A stretch of DNA of 64,000 nt from an uncultured Candidatus Saccharibacteria bacterium (GTDB taxonomy: Bacteria; Patescibacteriota; Saccharimonadia; CAILAD01; BJGX01). Of the stretch, positions 51,103 to 64,000 are shown piece by piece (within the stretch, counting starts at the first letter, position 1; each line of letters begins with the position of its first letter). A model generated the notes under the pieces. That model worked only from the letters and a program-made list of their open reading frames with translations. It did no database searches and was not told the origin of the DNA. The stretch is taken from NCBI GenBank assembly GCA_964552475.1, contig CAZKFZ010000002.1, positions 5,316-69,315 on the forward strand, written 5' to 3'. The translations under genes were made by a program, and so were the position numbers.

Positions 51103-51141
51103 TCAAGCATGAGTAAAACCCCTCACCATTTCGGTGAGGGG
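51103..51141. repeat. 39-nt hairpin-containing repeat, copy 1 (terminator of 51148..51975)
   Basis: tcaagcatGagtaaaacccctcaccatttcggtgagggg is identical except for 1 nt to copy 2 at 52048..52086. The shared sequence extends 5' beyond the hairpin. Confidence 0.8.
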
Positions 51142-51147
51142 CGTAGA

Positions 51148-51975
51148 TTATATATCTTGAGCTTGCCTAAGTAAGTCTACAAGCCTACTTTTTGCAGTAT
51201 TTACGTCTTCAATGTCTGGGCCAAAAACTGGTCTATGTAGAAGTTTATCACCTTGAGTAGATGTAAGAACTTTTTCGCCGTCTGGATCCAATACTTCATA
51301 ATGCCACTCTTGTGCCATATTACTGTGTCCTGGCAAGAATGCTATTGCGATCCAGCCATCTTCTTCATATCTGGTGTACTCTTCCCATTTTGGTGGTTGC
51401 GGTTCATGATAATCAGTTATAACCGCCCCTTCAAGACCAATTTTCTTTTCCTTGAAAAGTTCTCTAATTGGCTCCCACATGTGACCCACGAATCTATCAA
51501 CAATTTCCGCTAGCGTTTGAATGTAAAAGTAGCCACCCCAAAAGGCTGCACCACCAGATATTTCACCAATAAATTCACCGTTTTTTACTTTTTCAATCAA
51601 ATCGTTTACTACCAATTCAACGTCAATAAAGCCGATGTCATGCCAATTACCTGAGAATCTTTCAATATATTCGTGTCTTAGCTCAAGAATCCTTAAGTGG
51701 GCTGCAGTTGCTTTATAAAGACAATTTGTAGTTGAACCCAAATTGATTTTTTGATTGGGCCGTACAGGGTCTTGTATCCACCCAACGCCTTCGGTAAATT
51801 CACATACACACTTGAATTCGCGACCTTGGTATTGTCTTCCTTCTATTGTCTCACCTTCGAGATGCATCCATGCACACTCATGACCATCAATAGTAATTAG
51901 ACGTACTATGTCGTAGCTTGGATTAGCTGTTCTGGCCGCGTAATACCTAGGTAGCAATTCAACAATTGATGCCAT
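51148..51975 (-). CDS. hypothetical cytoplasmic protein (275 aa) flanked by the duplicated terminator element
   Basis: ORF rich in Trp/Tyr/Glu. No recognisable motif. Confidence 0.6.
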   Translation of the reverse strand: MASIVELLPRYYAARTANPSYDIVRLITIDGHECAWMHLEGETIEGRQYQGREFKCVCEFTEGVGWIQDPVRPNQKINLGSTTNCLYKATAAHLRILELRHEYIERFSGNWHDIGFIDVELVVNDLIEKVKNGEFIGEISGGAAFWGGYFYIQTLAEIVDRFVGHMWEPIRELFKEKKIGLEGAVITDYHEPQPPKWEEYTRYEEDGWIAIAFLPGHSNMAQEWHYEVLDPDGEKVLTSTQGDKLLHRPVFGPDIEDVNTAKSRLVDLLRQAQDI

Positions 51976-52047
51976 ATTATTTCCTTAGGTTCGCTTGTCA
52001 TTGTCTAGACAAGATCTGAAGATATTTTACAGTATTTTCGTAAAAAC

Positions 52048-52086
52048 TCAAGCATAAGTAAAACCCCTCACCATTTCGGTGAGGGG
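52048..52086. repeat. 39-nt hairpin-containing repeat, copy 2 (terminator of the ABC exporter gene)
   Basis: tcaagcatAagtaaaacccctcaccatttcggtgagggg. Confidence 0.8.
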
Positions 52087-53880: not shown

Positions 53881-54527
53881 AAGCGTCCTTTCTGTTGATA
53901 TTTAAGGTACAGGGATGGTACTTTTTTGGGCGTTTATTCGCCAATCAAAAAAGCTCGAGGTTTTTCGTATTCCCGAGCTCTGTCGATTACAAATAAATGC
54001 TTAAATCATATAACTCGGGAATGGCATGCACTAACCGCACCAGTTTGGACTGGGTTTTGTGCAAAACGTATTAATTTGGTTGCTATGGTGTTCATAGTGT
54101 TAGTTATACTACCGTATAGCTTAAGCACTGTCAAGCCCTTATGCTTACTTTTTAAAAAAATGTTAAGTTATAAGGTGAAACAGAAAGATCCGAGTTGTTT
54201 GAGCGAAAACTTCGCTAAAAGTGTTGGCAATAAGCTATTAATGTCTTATTCGCCAAAGAATGTGTTTCGGACCTTTTTGCATAACCTTATATGGTTAAAA
54301 AGTATTTTAAATCGATATTTACCTGGCCCCTGCAACAGATGAGTTCGTGTGCAAAGAAATATTGATAAAAGTAGTATAGCACAGGCAAGTGTTAATGTCA
54401 ATAGCCATTACGTTTAGTTAGGTTTTCTCGTTTCGTCTTGTAGAGTTTGAGCTCTAAGACTCATCAGACAAAATACTTATTTTGTGACGAGGGCCGGTGG
54501 AGAGGAACTCTCCACCGGCCAAAAAAA

Positions 54528-54833
54528 CTAGACCAAAGGCCTCAAGAAGCCCTTTCGGTCCCGAGTGTTGAAAAATCCTTCTCGGGAAGAGTAGCTTCCA
54601 TCGACTTTCCTGAATCTCGCGGTAAAGATCCAGTTGTTGCCAGAGCCGTCTTCGGCGGCCAGCGACATGATCTGAGCTTCACACTTGATTTCAGGTACCT
54701 TACGGGTACCGGAGACACGAACACTGCTCTCGAGTGTGAACTCGACCTTGCGAAACTCATCGAAGAGTCGCAGAGCATCGAAGAGCTCTTCACGCGACGG
54801 GCCATGGGTGATCTGGACAGTGCTAGTAGTCAT
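54528..54833 (-). CDS. small hypothetical protein (102 aa) in a GC-rich islet
   Basis: Good RBS (aaagaaagg) 7 nt before the ATG of MTTSTVQITHGPSREELFDAL.... Local GC is clearly higher than the flanks (by eye). The competing plus-strand ORF 54447..54896 is Arg/Ser-rich and looks spurious. Confidence 0.5.
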   Translation of the reverse strand: MTTSTVQITHGPSREELFDALRLFDEFRKVEFTLESSVRVSGTRKVPEIKCEAQIMSLAAEDGSGNNWIFTARFRKVDGSYSSREGFFNTRDRKGFLRPLV

Positions 54834-54989
54834 ACGACTACCTTTCTTTTTCAATATCTCCCGATGGCGGAGAGACGACGCCGTTACCTGGTTTAGACCC
54901 AAGCCACTCCTTCATACGAAGAAGAATTACAGCTATTCTATCATGCATTTTGCTATTTGTCAATACTTTTTAACAATTTATTTGTATAT

Positions 54990-55028
54990 ATAAAAAACCC
55001 GTATCTTATTACAGATACGGGTTGGTTT
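54990..55028 (-). terminator. rho-independent terminator of the 55029..56360 gene (bidirectional-looking)
   Basis: Hairpin aacccgtatct-tattaca-agatacgggtt directly after the stop. T-run on the minus strand and also T-run on the plus strand. Confidence 0.7.
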
Positions 55029-56360
55029 TTAACCGCGAGCGTACGGCTTACACACTCTTGCTTTGAGATTTCGCCACCGCAAGTGGATAGTGCGATGCTG
55101 CTTGGGCAAAGCATCTAGCCGAGCCGGCAACGCCTTGTTGGTTTCGCAGCTAAGCAACTCTAGCTCTTTGAACAGAGCTTCTTTATCAATAGTCTTGAAG
55201 TTGGGATCTCTCTCGCGACGAGATTTACCAACCCAACTAAAGAAGTCACCAGTAGAGTCTTTTAGGAACCCAAATGCTGTAGCGATACCAAACATGATTA
55301 GTGCCAACCCAAGTAGTGCCAACATAAAAGCTGGTACCACTAGCGGAGCAAGCAAATAGAACTCAAGTGGTAGGTTCCAAGTATTACCATGGTCTAGAAC
55401 AGCTAGAGCAACTACACCAACAAGAACGAATGGTGGGAAGATTGTGGCTGTAGCAAATAACCTAACAGCATCGCTAGGCTTGTCTAGGTCGTCAATGTCG
55501 TACTTGCTCCTACCTCGCTTATTGGTCCAGAAAATACTGCCGCCACCTGGCGAACAAGTCTTACTAACAGGACGAATATCTACGTCTCGCCAAAACTGCG
55601 CGGAGGTAGCTAGGGGGTTAAATAGCTTGCGCCACTTAACAGAGCGAATGCCAAACATGGCAAAGCCAAAGCCCGCCACAGACTTCACAAGGGTGTGAAA
55701 CAATATAGCTAGGGGTGACAAAAGCCACAAACCCCAACGCTTACGTCGGCCGCAGTCGTTAGGGCCTTTGCTACCCACCCCAAACAGCCTAAGCATGTTC
55801 ACAAGAGCTTTGGAGGGCTCTTTGGCAAACATCTCGTCTGGTACTACTACATCTAGTCTGGTTTCTACGCCAACACTACTAATTTGATAGGTTTCGTACA
55901 GATCACGAAACTTTAGTGGTGAGTCGTAATCAAATACGCTATTCTCGTAACTACCATTACGACGAGGCTTATCTAGCAAGTCACGATGCAGACGAGCAAT
56001 TTGCTCTGGCGTATCGCCATGCACAATTGTGGCCATTACCGTATTGGTGTCACGGCACACAAATTCAACAAACTCGGCTTCTTGCTGTAGCGGCACTAGC
56101 AAACGCTGCTCGTAAGCCATTTCTGCGCCATATCCATAGTCCCGAATCCTACCAATTACAATCAAAACGTACGGGTTGGTGACGTTTTGGTTCTTTAGTA
56201 GTTCAATTAGCTCTGGCGTAACACACCAGCGCAACATTGTAGCAGAATCTGCTCTGCCTTCAGGATCAACATCTACCTTAAGGCCCAAGTCAATGTCGAC
56301 TGGACTTTCAATAGTACTCATATTTAACTCCTTAGGTGCTCTTGTCTCTACCTGAGACAA
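55029..56360 (-). CDS. hypothetical membrane protein (443 aa) with moderately elevated GC
   Basis: N-terminal soluble domain then about 5 TM helices. No motif recognised. Confidence 0.6.
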   Translation of the reverse strand: MSQVETRAPKELNMSTIESPVDIDLGLKVDVDPEGRADSATMLRWCVTPELIELLKNQNVTNPYVLIVIGRIRDYGYGAEMAYEQRLLVPLQQEAEFVEFVCRDTNTVMATIVHGDTPEQIARLHRDLLDKPRRNGSYENSVFDYDSPLKFRDLYETYQISSVGVETRLDVVVPDEMFAKEPSKALVNMLRLFGVGSKGPNDCGRRKRWGLWLLSPLAILFHTLVKSVAGFGFAMFGIRSVKWRKLFNPLATSAQFWRDVDIRPVSKTCSPGGGSIFWTNKRGRSKYDIDDLDKPSDAVRLFATATIFPPFVLVGVVALAVLDHGNTWNLPLEFYLLAPLVVPAFMLALLGLALIMFGIATAFGFLKDSTGDFFSWVGKSRRERDPNFKTIDKEALFKELELLSCETNKALPARLDALPKQHRTIHLRWRNLKARVCKPYARG

Positions 56361-56461
56361 AACTTATACGATTATACATTTTTAGGGCTATTTTGCAAGC
56401 ATAAGAAATACAAAAAACCACCTTACTGGTGGCCTCTATGATTCTACTAATCTTTCAATCT

Positions 56462-61883: not shown

Positions 61884-61925
61884 TGGTGCTACCTTGGTGA
61901 GGTAGTCTTTAATCCTTGCGAGGGA

Positions 61926-62276
61926 TTAGTTGGAGGAGGCTAGTGAGCCTCGCACGTACTTACGGCCACGCCAGCCGAGTGCCTTGCGAGCCAGCTGGAT
62001 GGCAGCGAACGCTTCGGCGTTGGTGTTGGCAACGATGCTGAAGCGATCCTGACCACCGTCACCGGGCTGCTTCCAGCCGGCCTCTGGAGTGAGGTGCTTG
62101 GCCATCTTGGCGGCAGCCTTAGGCGAGCTAGGCTCTACCCGCACCCGCATTCGCTCGATGCCGAGCTCACGGAACCCCACCCGGCCACGTCGACTGGTGT
62201 GGGTCACCTGGTACTCACCGGTACCCTCGGTACCCGCCATGTAGAGCGAGTTGGCCTGCTTGGTACTTGCGGTCAT
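61926..62276 (-). CDS. hypothetical protein (116 aa), GC-rich
   Basis: ORF in the high-GC segment. 4-nt overlap with the upstream phosphatase gene. No motif recognised. Confidence 0.55.
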   Translation of the reverse strand: MTASTKQANSLYMAGTEGTGEYQVTHTSRRGRVGFRELGIERMRVRVEPSSPKAAAKMAKHLTPEAGWKQPGDGGQDRFSIVANTNAEAFAAIQLARKALGWRGRKYVRGSLASSN

Positions 62277-62830
62277 TTTTGACCCTTTCTGTTGTTGGGA
62301 GTTGGCCGCGGGGTGAATTCCTCGCGGTATTTCTGGGGTACTTCTTGGCTGCGCAGAGCAAAGATGCCCTCAACCTGCGCGATTGTCTCAACGGCGTGGC
62401 CACAGTGACGAAGACGTACCGCCAAGACAGGATCTGGTGTATCCTCTTCGCTCTCAAGAAGAGCAATGAGAGATGCCAGAAATGTACCTGTACGACCATG
62501 TGAGGCCGAACAATAAGCCAGCATGGTGTCGCCAGCCACAAGGCGTGGCACCACCAATCTCTCTAGCTTGTATCGCCAATCGCTTGGCACACCACCGAAG
62601 TCAGGCAACTCGAGCTCGGTGAGCTCATCCTGATCATCGTAAAGGTGCTTCTCGTCAATTAGCCTGCCATTGAGAGTGACTATCACGTCAAACTCGTCGA
62701 GGTTGGCCGGAAGGGCATACATTGTCCCCCAAGCTCCTACCTCAAACTCGCCAACTCTTACTAGTCCACCTCTATGTTCTTGGTGTACGCGAGCCACTTC
62801 TGGGCCCGCGCTTGAATGAGCTTCGCTCAT
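62273..62830 (-). CDS. dual-specificity / PTEN-like protein phosphatase (CX5R)
   Basis: P-loop YCSASHGRTG (compare PTEN HCKAGKGRTG). Candidate general-acid Asp in PDFGGVPSD about 30 residues upstream. 185 aa. Confidence 0.75.
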   Translation of the reverse strand: MSEAHSSAGPEVARVHQEHRGGLVRVGEFEVGAWGTMYALPANLDEFDVIVTLNGRLIDEKHLYDDQDELTELELPDFGGVPSDWRYKLERLVVPRLVAGDTMLAYCSASHGRTGTFLASLIALLESEEDTPDPVLAVRLRHCGHAVETIAQVEGIFALRSQEVPQKYREEFTPRPTPNNRKGQK

Positions 62831-62867
62831 TTAGGCTCCTTACCTAAGTCGCGGCAAAAGCAGGGGC

Positions 62868-63974
62868 TCACCAGAGCCCCTGCTTTACACCTTTGTCGAA
62901 TAGGGCCTGTACCCGAGGGTCAAAGCCATAATCTTTCAGTCCATTATGCAGACTGGTTACTCCGGTAACGTTTTTCTTGATCTCGAGCTGTTGGTCGATT
63001 CCTCGACCACCATAGCCCCTAGACGTTTCATGAACAATGCGGTGCTTGTTGAACAGCACCCCACCGTTATGACGAAGATCCCACACGTGATCAACAAACG
63101 CAACCAGTGGCAACTCTTTGCTTAGGTACCGTGCCAATGTTCTGGCAATATCGGCCCAAAGCTTACCACCCATTGACCCCCACCACTTGCCAAACTCAAA
63201 CACATCGCCGATAAGCGACGCGTACTGAGCTTGTTCAAGGAGGGAGTGGCCTTTAAGGCCGGTACTCCTATTCCACATCTCATCGCGTTGATTCGACATA
63301 GTGAAATTAAAGGAGGTACGTAGCTTCTGCATGGCTGCATCGGCTTTGGGCGTTTTGTACGGATTGTCGTAATACCGCACCTCGCCAGTAATAGCGATTG
63401 CCAGGTAAGTAGCTAATAGCTCGGCCACGTTTGCCTGAACGTCTCGCTGCAACTTAAACGCTTCTGCCTCAAGCGAGCTACCTTTAGCCGCGCGGGCCAT
63501 GGCATCGCTTAGGTAGAAGTCATTAAGAAGTTGGTTGGCGGTATGCGATTCACTCATCCGCTCAAATGCCAGATGTGGTTCTGGTGTGGCAAACAGAGAA
63601 TGCCAGCGCAAGAAGATATTGGCCTCCTTGGTGAGATCCACCGACGTAGTCGGCAACTCGCCTCGGTAAACCAATCCGCTAGTGCCGTTGACCGACACCA
63701 CCTCTCCAGGCTCTAGGCTACTCAGATCGAACTGAGCACCCACTACAGCCGGCAGACCTATTCCACGGGCCACTACAGCAGCATGACAAGTAGCTCCACC
63801 AACACTGGTTACGACGGCCGAAGCCGCCAATAGTCCTGGTAGATCATCGGGGTTGGTATCTGGACGAACCAGAATTGCCTTGGTACCCGATGCAGCAATC
63901 GCTTGTGCCCCGTTAGAGGTATGAGCAACCACTCCTGTCACGCAACCAGGTGAAGCTGGCAAACCCTCAGCCAA
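62868..63974 (-). CDS. PEP-utilising-enzyme mobile (phosphohistidine swivel) domain protein with unrecognised C-terminal domain; 5' end probably beyond the window
   Basis: VGGATCHAAVVARGIGLPAVVG is the conserved phospho-His swivel motif. The following roughly 250 aa match no domain I recognise. The reading frame stays open to the window edge. Confidence 0.7.
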   Translation of the reverse strand: MAEGLPASPGCVTGVVAHTSNGAQAIAASGTKAILVRPDTNPDDLPGLLAASAVVTSVGGATCHAAVVARGIGLPAVVGAQFDLSSLEPGEVVSVNGTSGLVYRGELPTTSVDLTKEANIFLRWHSLFATPEPHLAFERMSESHTANQLLNDFYLSDAMARAAKGSSLEAEAFKLQRDVQANVAELLATYLAIAITGEVRYYDNPYKTPKADAAMQKLRTSFNFTMSNQRDEMWNRSTGLKGHSLLEQAQYASLIGDVFEFGKWWGSMGGKLWADIARTLARYLSKELPLVAFVDHVWDLRHNGGVLFNKHRIVHETSRGYGGRGIDQQLEIKKNVTGVTSLHNGLKDYGFDPRVQALFDKGVKQGLW

Positions 63975-64000
63975 CAGTCGCCCCTCGGCCTTGGCTTGCG

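Follow-up and report, generated by a model that had tools for sequence, protein, structure and literature searches.

The GC-rich patch analysed here, from a Saccharibacteria-like genome, is probably a monocistronic, autonomous unit that takes up about 560 bp of the minus strand; the membrane-protein gene beside it, which has a promoter and terminator of its own, is in this explanation an unrelated neighbour. Read 5' to 3', the unit consists of a strong sigma-70-type promoter, a 96-nt leader, the gene for a 101-aa protein, a U-run with a 13-bp hairpin, and a type III hammerhead. The window is the whole stretch of DNA that was analysed (64,000 nucleotides). L001 and L002 are stretches from its close relatives, and L003 is 97.5–99.4% identical to L001. 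The components of the unit are:

54935..54965, minus strand, promoter of the small-gene unit (-35 TTGACA at 54963..54958, 17-nt spacer, extended -10 TGaTAGAAT at 54943..54935)
54834..54929, minus strand, structured 5' leader RNA of 96 nt (covariance models R1, 84 bits, and R2, 76 bits)
54528..54833, minus strand, coding sequence of the 101-aa protein, stop included in the coordinates (Patescibacteria-wide uncharacterised family)
54492..54527, minus strand, U7 run (54527-54521) and perfect 13-bp GC-rich hairpin (54520-54492), from an inverted-repeat search
54427..54491, minus strand, type III hammerhead ribozyme (Rfam RF00008 and descriptor), abutting the 13-bp hairpin

Composition and protein family of the small gene

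The GC-rich patch at 54440-54910, picked out in a sequence-only reading, is real: windowed GC is 51.4% for the patch and 53.1% for the small open reading frame (ORF), against a window mean of 40%. These values correspond to z of approximately 3.7–3.9 when the GC-rich last 2.5 kb of the window is excluded, and 0.02–0.1% of equal-sized windows have GC as high. The GC excess of the ORF is located at synonymous sites, its GC3 of 0.62 being about 3.2 sd above the mean of 0.353 (sd 0.084) and the second highest among the 59 ORFs of the window; the small gene is thus a compositional outlier at synonymous sites. GC3 is likewise raised for genes of the same family in many unrelated hosts, and these genes are often GC-richer than their own host, a pattern that could reflect selection rather than transfer. 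In the explanation preferred here, the high GC3 would be a mark of descent from a GC-richer Patescibacteria lineage.

The protein has 101 residues, not the 102 first counted, with its ATG at 54833 and stop codon at 54530-54528, and the good ribosome-binding site (RBS) ascribed to it is present as an RBS-like AAAGG 7 nt 5' of the ATG. Comparison of the ORF with L001 gives a dN/dS of 0.14, and the gene is therefore under purifying selection. The family has three invariant motifs, GPSREELFDxLRL, EDGSGxSW and RxG, and its predicted fold comprises an N-terminal helix and a small antiparallel beta-barrel without a clear relative. No recognisable motif had been seen in this protein or in the neighbouring membrane protein, and neither the two proteins themselves nor the family alignments gave a meaningful match in Pfam, NCBIfam, PHROGs, PADLOC or the PDB sequences; a Foldseek search of the small-protein model against the PDB gave no match better than E 0.2. 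The family shows no sequence similarity to Sm/SH3-like barrels (Hfq, WYL domains, L19) or to CBF-beta, and its invariant motifs differ from those of Sm and WYL proteins. Homology to Hfq was rejected (probability 0.2 when hhalign compared the family profile with E. coli Hfq; no Pfam match), as was a phage or viral origin, the protein having no relative in IMG/VR or among GenBank phages. Genes of the family are often found close to genes for tRNA, tmRNA and IS200-type transposases.

A structured leader confined to one gene family

The promoter scores 11 of 12 in a consensus scan, with the extending TG, and homologous -10 boxes are found about 7 nt upstream of the leader at other loci. The leader begins approximately at the transcription start and contains two hairpins followed by an H-type pseudoknot, which lies about 15 nt upstream of the RBS:

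54924-54918 / 54913-54907, minus strand, leader helix P1, loop GUAU
54904-54899 / 54891-54886, minus strand, leader helix P2
54882-54879 / 54869-54866, minus strand, pseudoknot stem S1
54876-54870 / 54862-54856, minus strand, pseudoknot stem S2, with the RBS and ATG 3' of it

These helices are backed by compensatory changes. A plain MAFFT alignment of 11 leaders has 94% of its cells paired, compared with 36–50% when the pairing partners are slid, and 21 of its 26 pairs have changed on both sides. A set of 31 distinct sequences gives 93.5% pairing, with all 22 of 22 pairs changed on both sides. Covariation scores are 0.83 and 0.80 in the two alignments, compared with at most 0.22 for slid partners, and were matched by none of 500 shuffles. 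A four-helix parser recovered the pseudoknot stems in three leader subtypes of differing sequence and scored 25 of 30 untranslated regions above all 40 of their shuffles; in the AT-rich subtype, where MAFFT misaligns the pseudoknot strands, the alignment was corrected by this structural parser and by model-based alignment.

The covariance models returned 38 and then 48 matches, every one directly 5' of a small-family gene, on the same strand, in Patescibacteria. In the 422 kb scanned on both strands no leader occurs away from such genes, and the leader is exclusively linked to the family in that set. Rfam 15 gave no match to the window leader at E≤10, and none to 39 other leader loci at the gathering score or E≤1; the leader is a new structured RNA, absent from Rfam 15. 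Literature searches that paired Patescibacteria or Parcubacteria with riboswitches or RNA motifs brought up no relevant title. An upstream ORF within the leader (25 codons, AUG in the P1 loop) was rejected as unconserved, its counterpart in L001 reaching a stop after two codons.

We propose that the leader controls translation of the small gene, most likely by binding the gene's own product, the small beta-barrel protein. Autoregulatory leaders with pseudoknots are found in E. coli rpsO (S15), the alpha-operon (S4) leader and phage T4 gene 32 mRNA. Like these, the present RNA is a structured 5' leader with a pseudoknot near the RBS for a protein that is small and probably abundant, and it is linked strictly to one gene family; part of it also repeats sequence of the start region, the P1-loop and start-codon regions sharing a run of at least 6 in 9 of 30 own-locus pairings versus 4.8% of cross pairings. 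Unlike in those systems, the 101-aa protein, a putative binder of the leader, is not ribosomal and has no known nucleic-acid-binding domain, and the leader has no sequence or Rfam relation to theirs. By analogy with ribosomal-protein and T4 gene 32 mRNAs, our best guess is that the leader would serve as an autoregulatory operator.

It is rather unlikely that the leader is instead a riboswitch, with the pseudoknot binding a small molecule or ion to control the RBS and the protein acting on that ligand. Such a reading draws on the compact, pseudoknotted form of the RNA just 5' of the RBS, on the anti-SD-like 5' arm and SD-like 3' arm of P1, which permit alternative pairing, and on the restriction to one gene family, as in orphan riboswitch candidates such as yjdF, reportedly also linked to a single gene family. 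It is weakened by the unpaired nucleotides, few of which are conserved across the three subtypes, and by the junctions, which vary by subtype (AAC versus UC, with L1 and L3 differing in length and sequence); moreover, the protein offers no hint of a ligand and the leader matches no Rfam aptamer. The differing joining regions argue against a shared small-molecule pocket; they do not prove protein binding.

In type III toxin–antitoxin systems of the ToxIN kind, too, a pseudoknot-forming RNA is encoded immediately 5' of a small protein gene. The RNA here is, unlike in those systems, a single copy and not a set of tandem repeats, no terminator separates it from the gene, and PADLOC and Pfam give no match to ToxN, AbiEii or CptN. 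Since it carries the RBS of the gene, it is a leader and not a separate RNA.

Hairpin and hammerhead at the 3' end of the small gene

The small gene is followed by a perfect 13-bp inverted repeat with a 3-nt loop (54492-54504 / 54508-54520), preceded on the coding strand by the T-run noted earlier (T7, 54527-54521). The hairpin resembles an intrinsic terminator in being GC-rich, perfect and immediately 3' of the stop codon, and differs from one in that its U-run lies on the 5' side, with CUCGUCACAAAA on the 3' side; its 3' flank, CUCGUCAC, holds no U-tract, and the terminator scan that called the neighbouring terminators did not call it. Dedicated terminators had been assigned to both genes of the patch: the membrane-protein gene indeed has a canonical one at 54996..55023, whereas the small gene has this hairpin, directly followed by a hammerhead. 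The hairpin stem of L001 differs by compensatory substitutions, C>U / G>A. We propose that the hairpin is not an intrinsic terminator but a protective 3'-terminal structure of the processed mRNA.

The hammerhead is made up of the following elements:

5' strand CUCGU, then C17 (54486), and 3' strand ACGAG (54431-54427), minus strand, stem III, open end
between 54486 and 54485, minus strand, predicted cleavage site, GUC triplet
54485-54468, minus strand, stem I hairpin
54467-54461, minus strand, core CUGAUGA, agreeing with C3-U4-G5-A6-N7-G8-A9
54460-54435, minus strand, stem II
54434-54431, minus strand, GAAA, agreeing with G12-A13-A14, its last A (54431) being A15.1, the first base of the stem III 3' strand

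The catalytic core is complete and all three helices are present. Acceptance rules for hammerheads call for H17 (not G), U16.1 paired with A15.1, and canonical core-flanking pairs in the three stems (PMC3088659). The sequence agrees with all of these: the closing pairs A15.1-U16.1, G10.1-C11.1 and A1.1-U2.1 are present, the stems measure 7, 5 (extended) and 5 bp, and, in the descriptor and in the cmscan structure line, stems I and II are closed by loops and stem III is open. The RF00008 model scores 24.3 bits in the window (local) and 36.1 bits in L001 (full length), with all core positions matched in both; these scores lie below the Rfam gathering score of 48.5, bits being lost where stem II has its long insertion and in stem I, which is AU-rich. 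A strict descriptor matches only the two homologous sites, in the window and L001, in 402 kb searched on both strands. The hammerhead region is 92% identical between these two, with differences only in loops and in distal stem II, which has been replaced; with two homologous copies the covariation is thin. Synonymous divergence of the small gene between the window and L001 is saturated (dS about 1). A hammerhead common to the whole family was rejected, as it occurs in the window and L001 only and the other small-family genes end in canonical terminators.

Bacterial and phage hammerheads flank single genes and cut long transcripts to gene-length mRNAs, and the role of most bacterial examples is still unclear (Perreault et al. 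2011, PMC3088659). The present one shares with the RF00008 and PMC3088659 ribozymes the CUGAUGA...GAAA core, the GUC triplet, canonical closing pairs in its three helices and an open stem III; its position at a gene boundary is also alike, and cleavage would there free a single-gene mRNA. Similar hammerheads are abundant in viral contigs, and at least 120 of these have the same stem II base, GUCUU/AAGAC. It departs from known examples in its host, a Saccharibacteria-like chromosome without nearby prophage genes, in being a single ribozyme and not one of a flanking pair, in its long, extended stem II, in its direct fusion to a 13-bp hairpin that replaces the terminator, and in its score under the Rfam gathering threshold, activity being predicted from sequence. 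A literature search for hammerheads in Saccharibacteria brought up no relevant title.

According to the mechanism we favour, the hammerhead would cut the transcript 6 nt 3' of the hairpin, leaving an mRNA whose 3' end would be the stable hairpin followed by CUCGUC with a 2',3'-cyclic phosphate. Cleavage would uncouple the strongly promoted small gene from the regulated leader of the ABC exporter just downstream, and the ribozyme would thus stand in place of the intrinsic terminator carried by other family members. An inactive relic or a chance match is improbable; in that reading the hairpin would terminate with the help of a factor or by some unconventional route, or would simply stabilise. 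The sub-threshold scores speak for it, as do the bare motif CTGATGA...GAAAC, which arises by chance in 18% of shuffled windows, and the minimum-free-energy fold, in which the U-run pairs with the A-run instead. However, nothing is missing from the core nucleotides, the GUC triplet or the three closing pairs, chance would yield the full descriptor 0.04 times per shuffled window even with stems of minimal length, and the 92% identity to L001 persists despite saturated synonymous sites, the changes being in loops or compensatory.

The membrane-protein gene is a separate neighbour

55029..56321, minus strand, membrane-protein gene, 430 aa, a separate neighbour belonging to a large unannotated family
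54996..55023, minus strand, canonical intrinsic terminator of the membrane-protein gene, an 11-bp stem then a U-run, kept in L001 and L003
56371..56398, minus strand, candidate promoter of the membrane-protein gene (TTGCAA and TATAAT, spaced by 16 nt)

The membrane protein, earlier given as 443 aa from an upstream TTG at 56360, most likely has 430 residues and starts at the ATG at 56321, behind AAGGAG. It has an N-terminal FN3/Ig-like beta-sandwich, no signal peptide, approximately 3–4 transmembrane helices and a conserved helix-rich C-terminal tail; four cysteines are conserved in its family. Identity to L001 across 56300-56399 is 92%. A 62-member alignment of the family had no conserved block usable for a scan of the genome collection, and a scan with a 3-member alignment returned one Saccharibacteria MAG contig, which ends inside the gene and so yields the lineage without additional synteny.

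A moderate GC elevation had been ascribed to this gene. Its GC content is indeed 47.4%, but the effect is weak and forms no sharp islet: GC3, at 0.45, exceeds the mean by about 1.2 sd and is similar to that of the HD_4 and ABC genes, most of the rise falls in the first and second codon positions, and the ABC gene, with 44.9% GC, shows an elevation too.

The sequence-only reading had joined the two genes into one independently acquired cassette, a proposal that the comparison largely refutes and that is now very unlikely. What speaks for it is that the genes are adjacent on the same strand, that both lie above the window GC mean, that neither protein has known domains and that both diverge from L001 faster than the surrounding genes. 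Against it, the two genes have separate promoter-like sites and separate 3' ends, and synonymous sites deviate in the small gene (GC3 0.62) and not correspondingly in its neighbour (0.45). Nor are the two genes gained, lost or found together: L003 has the membrane-protein gene without the small gene, members of the two families are adjacent only in L001/L002, the close relatives of the window, among 57 stretches with a small-family gene, and the membrane-family member P0124 stands alone in an unrelated context.

Boundaries and probable loss of the unit

54965..54958, minus strand, upstream copy of the 8-bp direct repeat TATTGACA, at the edge of the block absent in L003
54396..54403, minus strand, downstream copy of TATTGACA, containing the -35 box of the next promoter
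54401..54373, minus strand, promoter that drives the conserved ABC-exporter leader region, its -35 box within the downstream TATTGACA

A block of 550 bp, 54952..54403, which holds the small-gene unit only, is exactly absent in L003, a metagenome assembly in which the deletion rests on one contig. The presence/absence polymorphism expected of the islet thus holds for the small-gene unit and not for the membrane-protein gene, which L003 keeps. The unit is present in the window and in L001; the simplest account of its absence from L003 is therefore a deletion running from one TATTGACA repeat to the other, and the unit would be dispensable. The gene occupies the same site in a relative at saturated synonymous divergence (dS about 1), which indicates that it is not a recent acquisition. 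The spacer of about 550 nt between the islet and the ABC exporter gene, described before as AT-rich and non-coding, is non-coding, but it is highly conserved regulatory DNA and not filler.

The same boundaries could be read as those of a small non-autonomous mobile element of 562 bp, inserted in the -35 box of the ABC-leader promoter with TATTGACA as an 8-bp target duplication, perhaps by a transposase or a ribozyme-linked RNA intermediate; this we regard as a poor prospect. The direct repeat does lie exactly at both ends of a unit precisely missing from L003, and the family's genes, often GC-richer than their hosts, keep the genomic company of tRNA, tmRNA and IS200-type transposase genes. Yet the window and L001 share the site and L003 is nearly identical to L001, making deletion more parsimonious; no terminal inverted repeats were seen when the ends were read by eye, the window has no second leader copy, the protein is absent from the viral contigs and phage genomes searched, and TATTGACA is itself a promoter consensus.

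Discussion

Patescibacteria (CPR) have small genomes, are mostly uncultivated and carry many unannotated genes; to our knowledge, very few regulatory RNAs have been described for them. Beyond the organization of the unit itself, it is possible, though some way short of probable, that the leader pseudoknot and the 101-aa protein form an undescribed, Patescibacteria-wide RNA–protein regulatory pair. In such a pair the protein would bind RNA, recognising a hairpin that contains UCG-N-AUG, and would repress its own translation via the leader; the 3' end of the unit's mRNA would, in this Saccharibacteria lineage, come from a hammerhead and a protective hairpin, not from a terminator.

For annotation, the locus counsels caution, in that a GC islet with an odd hairpin, once read as an acquired cassette with a faulty terminator, is a compact and well-organised expression unit. 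The covarying leader and the widespread uncharacterised protein family can both now be searched for and tested. A hammerhead at the terminator position, behind a protective hairpin, may likewise offer a testable natural case of ribozyme-defined mRNA 3' ends on a bacterial chromosome.

A GC-rich patch with a single small gene

The GC-rich patch picked out by the sequence-only reading is real: the windowed calculation which that reading proposed gives 51.4% GC for positions 54440–54910 and 53.1% for the small ORF, against a window mean of 40.4%. With the final, GC-rich 2.5 kb of the window left out, the ORF and the patch have z-scores of about 3.7–3.9, which at most 0.1% of equal-sized windows reach. 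The excess sits at synonymous sites, the GC3 of the small gene (0.62) being the second highest in the window (mean 0.353, s.d. 0.084, 59 non-overlapping ORFs). The membrane-protein gene upstream on the minus strand, described as moderately GC-elevated, does have 47.4% GC, but its GC3 of just 0.45 is similar to those of the downstream ABC exporter gene (0.41; 44.9% GC) and the HD_4 gene on the other flank (0.44), so it forms no sharp islet. Both gene models were shortened slightly, the small protein from 102 to 101 residues and the membrane protein from 443 to 430, its most likely start being ATG 56321 behind AAGGAG.

A second GC-rich block (61900–64000, minus strand, 51–65% GC) holds a 116-aa ORF (62276..61929) with the window maximum of GC3, 0.74, together with one of 185 aa and a third that continues past the window end; in L001, the syntenic gene has PPDK_N and PEP-utilizers domains.

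Features of the two genes (window coordinates)
56398..56371, minus: promoter-like site of the membrane gene, from consensus scan
55023..54996, minus: terminator of the membrane gene, from consensus scan
54963..54935, minus: promoter-like site of the small gene (TTGACA, 17 nt, TGnTAGAAT), from consensus scan
54929..54834, minus: leader RNA, from comparison of family upstream regions
54833..54528, minus: small-protein CDS, 101 aa

Separate units and probable loss in a related locus

Consensus scans for promoter-like sites and 3′ structures gave each gene its own of both. The dedicated terminators previously assigned to the pair hold for the membrane gene, whereas the small gene ends in a hairpin and a candidate hammerhead. 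When 63 loci were scanned with HMMs of both families, the two were adjacent only in the related loci L001 and L002, and the membrane-family member P0124 stands alone in a different context; an independently acquired two-gene cassette is therefore unsupported, and the membrane gene is an independent neighbour of the small-gene unit.

Two metagenomic contigs, L001 and L003, are syntenic with the window. L001 has both genes, with HD_4 on one side and the ABC gene on the other. L003 is 97.5–99.4% identical to L001, yet lacks exactly the sequence of window 54952..54403, its next promoter following directly after the membrane-gene terminator. An 8-bp direct repeat, TATTGACA, bounds the missing block (54965–54958 and 54403–54396). 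As the block is carried by both L001 and the more distant window, the simplest history would be its loss from L003 through deletion between the repeats. The presence/absence polymorphism suspected for the pair thus affects the small-gene block, the membrane gene being kept in L003.

At L003 6590–6800 and 7600–7800, the L003 membrane gene has an in-frame TGA, after which the frame is open to the normal C terminus, and the ABC gene an in-frame TAA near its start; locus decay, sequencing error or recoding could account for these stops. A second presence/absence difference is a block of about 900 bp (51141–52048), missing from both L001 and L003, which holds a 275-aa ORF (51975..51148) with no match in Pfam, NCBIfam, PHROG or PADLOC.

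The two protein families

Homologs of the small protein numbered 11 by single-sequence search and 382 by profile search, all unnamed or ‘hypothetical’ and without Pfam domains. Those with a lineage name belong to Nomurabacteria, Falkowbacteria and Minisyncoccia; the lineage of the window itself was placed through its synteny with L021, a Saccharibacteria MAG contig. The motifs GPSREELFDxLRL, EDGSGxSW and RxG are invariant, and a dN/dS of 0.14 shows purifying selection. The fold predicted by AlphaFold (pLDDT 80) consists of a short strand, a helix and six antiparallel strands arranged as a sheet or barrel.

Small-family genes stand alone in variable neighbourhoods, often adjoining tRNA, tmRNA or RNase P RNA genes. 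On three unrelated contigs, the long ‘intergenic’ stretch adjoining the family gene contains an RNase P RNA or tmRNA gene (L007 7289–7653, L019 4233–4629 and L031 618–1016). Across 28 loci the genes exceed their surroundings by 0.069 in mean GC, and by up to 0.24 in hosts of 34–41% GC; high GC is thus a recurrent trait of some small-gene lineages, through repeated transfer or selection. GC3 reaches 0.50–0.76 in stretches otherwise of 34–41% GC in L022, L023, L026, L029, L043, L050 and L060; such genes occur on many unrelated Patescibacteria contigs, often with tRNA genes just upstream. Copies with the AT-rich leader subtype match the composition of their AT-rich hosts.

The membrane family comprises 1346 representatives at E ≤ 1e-3, and the 62 members scanned gave no consistent Pfam match. 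It conserves VPxEMFAKEP, DQCxFRRR and RTVxLRFxxLKAKVCRPFAR, with C190 invariant and C33, C392 and C424 present in at least 90% of members.

A structured leader RNA

The upstream regions of about 30 distinct small-family genes have one architecture in common, which starts about 7 nt past a −10 box: hairpin P1, then a second, variable hairpin (P2) and an H-type pseudoknot of stems S1 and S2, with the ribosome-binding site and ATG last. The pseudoknot was recovered in three subtypes despite their quite different sequences.

Pseudoknot stems, one example per subtype
Example 1: GGCG/CGCC with GUCUCUC/GGGAGAU
Example 2: CAGAG/CUCUG with UCUUUAU/AUAAAGA
Example 3: CGGGGC/GCCUCG with UAUUUCCC/GGGAAAUG

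When 11 sequences were aligned with plain MAFFT, pairing held in 94% of cells, compared with 36–50% for slid partners; both sides changed in 21 of 26 pairs, and none of 500 shuffles reached the covariation score. With the structural parser that recovered the pseudoknot, 25 of 30 UTRs outscore all 40 of their dinucleotide shuffles. A covariance model of the 11 aligned sequences gave 38 hits and, in a second round, 48, every one directly upstream of a small-family gene on the same strand, with none away from family genes in 422 kb searched on both strands. With 31 distinct sequences, 93.5% of cells are paired, and each of the 22 modelled pairs varies on both sides. Rfam 15 gave no family match, even at permissive thresholds, and a literature search returned no relevant paper. 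On this comparative evidence, the new leader’s structure and gene association are almost certainly real.

The 5′ arm of P1 is pyrimidine-rich and anti-SD-like, the 3′ arm is SD-like, and the apex often repeats the start-codon surroundings, UCG-N-AUG. Apex and start codon share a run of at least 6 in 9 of 30 own pairings, compared with 4.8% of cross pairings. In the window, UCGUAUGA occurs in both P1 (54924–54907) and the start region (54840–54831), and over about 30 loci the two tend to change together. The shared repeat and its joint change suggest that one binder may recognise both. The joining regions vary from subtype to subtype, which would fit an operator that is structural or bound by protein better than a small-molecule pocket; our preferred reading is that the encoded protein autoregulates through the leader.

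The spacer before the ABC exporter gene

The AT-rich spacer (53881–54400, minus strand) lies where it had been described, but is more than non-coding DNA: it is 86–93% identical to L001, compared with 72–82% for the flanking genes, and contains two promoter-like sites (54401..54373 and 54134..54106). The leader that would start from the second is about 160 nt long and includes an ORF of 29 codons, MNTIATKLIRFAQNPVQTGAVSACHSRVI; the end of this ORF, UUCCCGAG, can base-pair with the 5′ arm of a strong terminator at about 53987..53945. This leader looks like a ribosome-mediated attenuator of the ABC exporter.

A candidate hammerhead at the 3′ end

The 13-bp hairpin reported after the small-gene stop is a perfect inverted repeat (54492–54504 and 54508–54520), preceded on the minus strand by T7, as had been seen. 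The sequence past it has a complete type III hammerhead layout.

Minus-strand order after the small-gene stop
To the predicted cleavage site: UAG, UUUUUUU, hairpin GGCCGGUGGAGAG UUC CUCUCCACCGGCC, CUCGUC
After the predicted cleavage site: ACAAAAU AAGU AUUUUGU, CUGAUGA, GUCUU...AAGAC, GAAA, CGAG

CUCGU/ACGAG forms stem III, including the A15.1–U16.1 pair, and GUC the cleavage triplet; stem I is a hairpin of 7 bp, CUGAUGA and GAAA make up the core, and G10.1–C11.1 closes stem II. The Rfam model RF00008 aligned all core positions, with 24.3 bits for the window and 36.1 bits, full length, for L001, both below the gathering score of 48.5, chiefly because stem II has a long insertion. Across both strands of 402 kb, a strict descriptor matched these two homologous sites alone, with a chance expectation of 0.04 per shuffled window even at minimal stem lengths. 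The hairpin and ribozyme stretch is 92% identical between window and L001, even though the flanking genes show saturation at synonymous sites (pS 0.58–0.69); the hairpin differs by a compensatory C>U/G>A pair, and the ribozyme by loop changes and a replaced, still paired distal stem II. The U7 run (54521–54527) is complementary to an A-run past stem III (54423–54426). Both runs are kept in L001, and their pairing in the MFE fold would turn the 13-bp hairpin into a branch on the side of an extended stem III.

Known bacterial hammerheads number in the hundreds; many of them flank single genes in prophages, and their proposed role is to divide long transcripts into mRNAs of single-gene length (PMC3088659). 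The window’s stem II base, CUGAUGAGUCUU...AAGACGAAAC, recurs in hammerheads of at least 120 IMG/VR contigs (L064–L183; 113 matches type I, 9 type III); one type III viral copy, in L122, likewise has a hairpin, of 16 bp, directly upstream. Taken together, the 3′ element is very probably a genuine hammerhead in place of a terminator. Since the other small-family genes end in ordinary terminators, the candidate ribozyme is a lineage-specific substitute.

Cleavage 6 nt past the hairpin would leave an mRNA protected by it, which would explain the T-run-before-hairpin order, and would uncouple the small-gene unit from the downstream ABC-exporter leader. The best explanation of the patch is an expression unit for a single gene, compact and dispensable, that carries two RNA elements: the new structured leader and, replacing the terminator, a candidate hammerhead.
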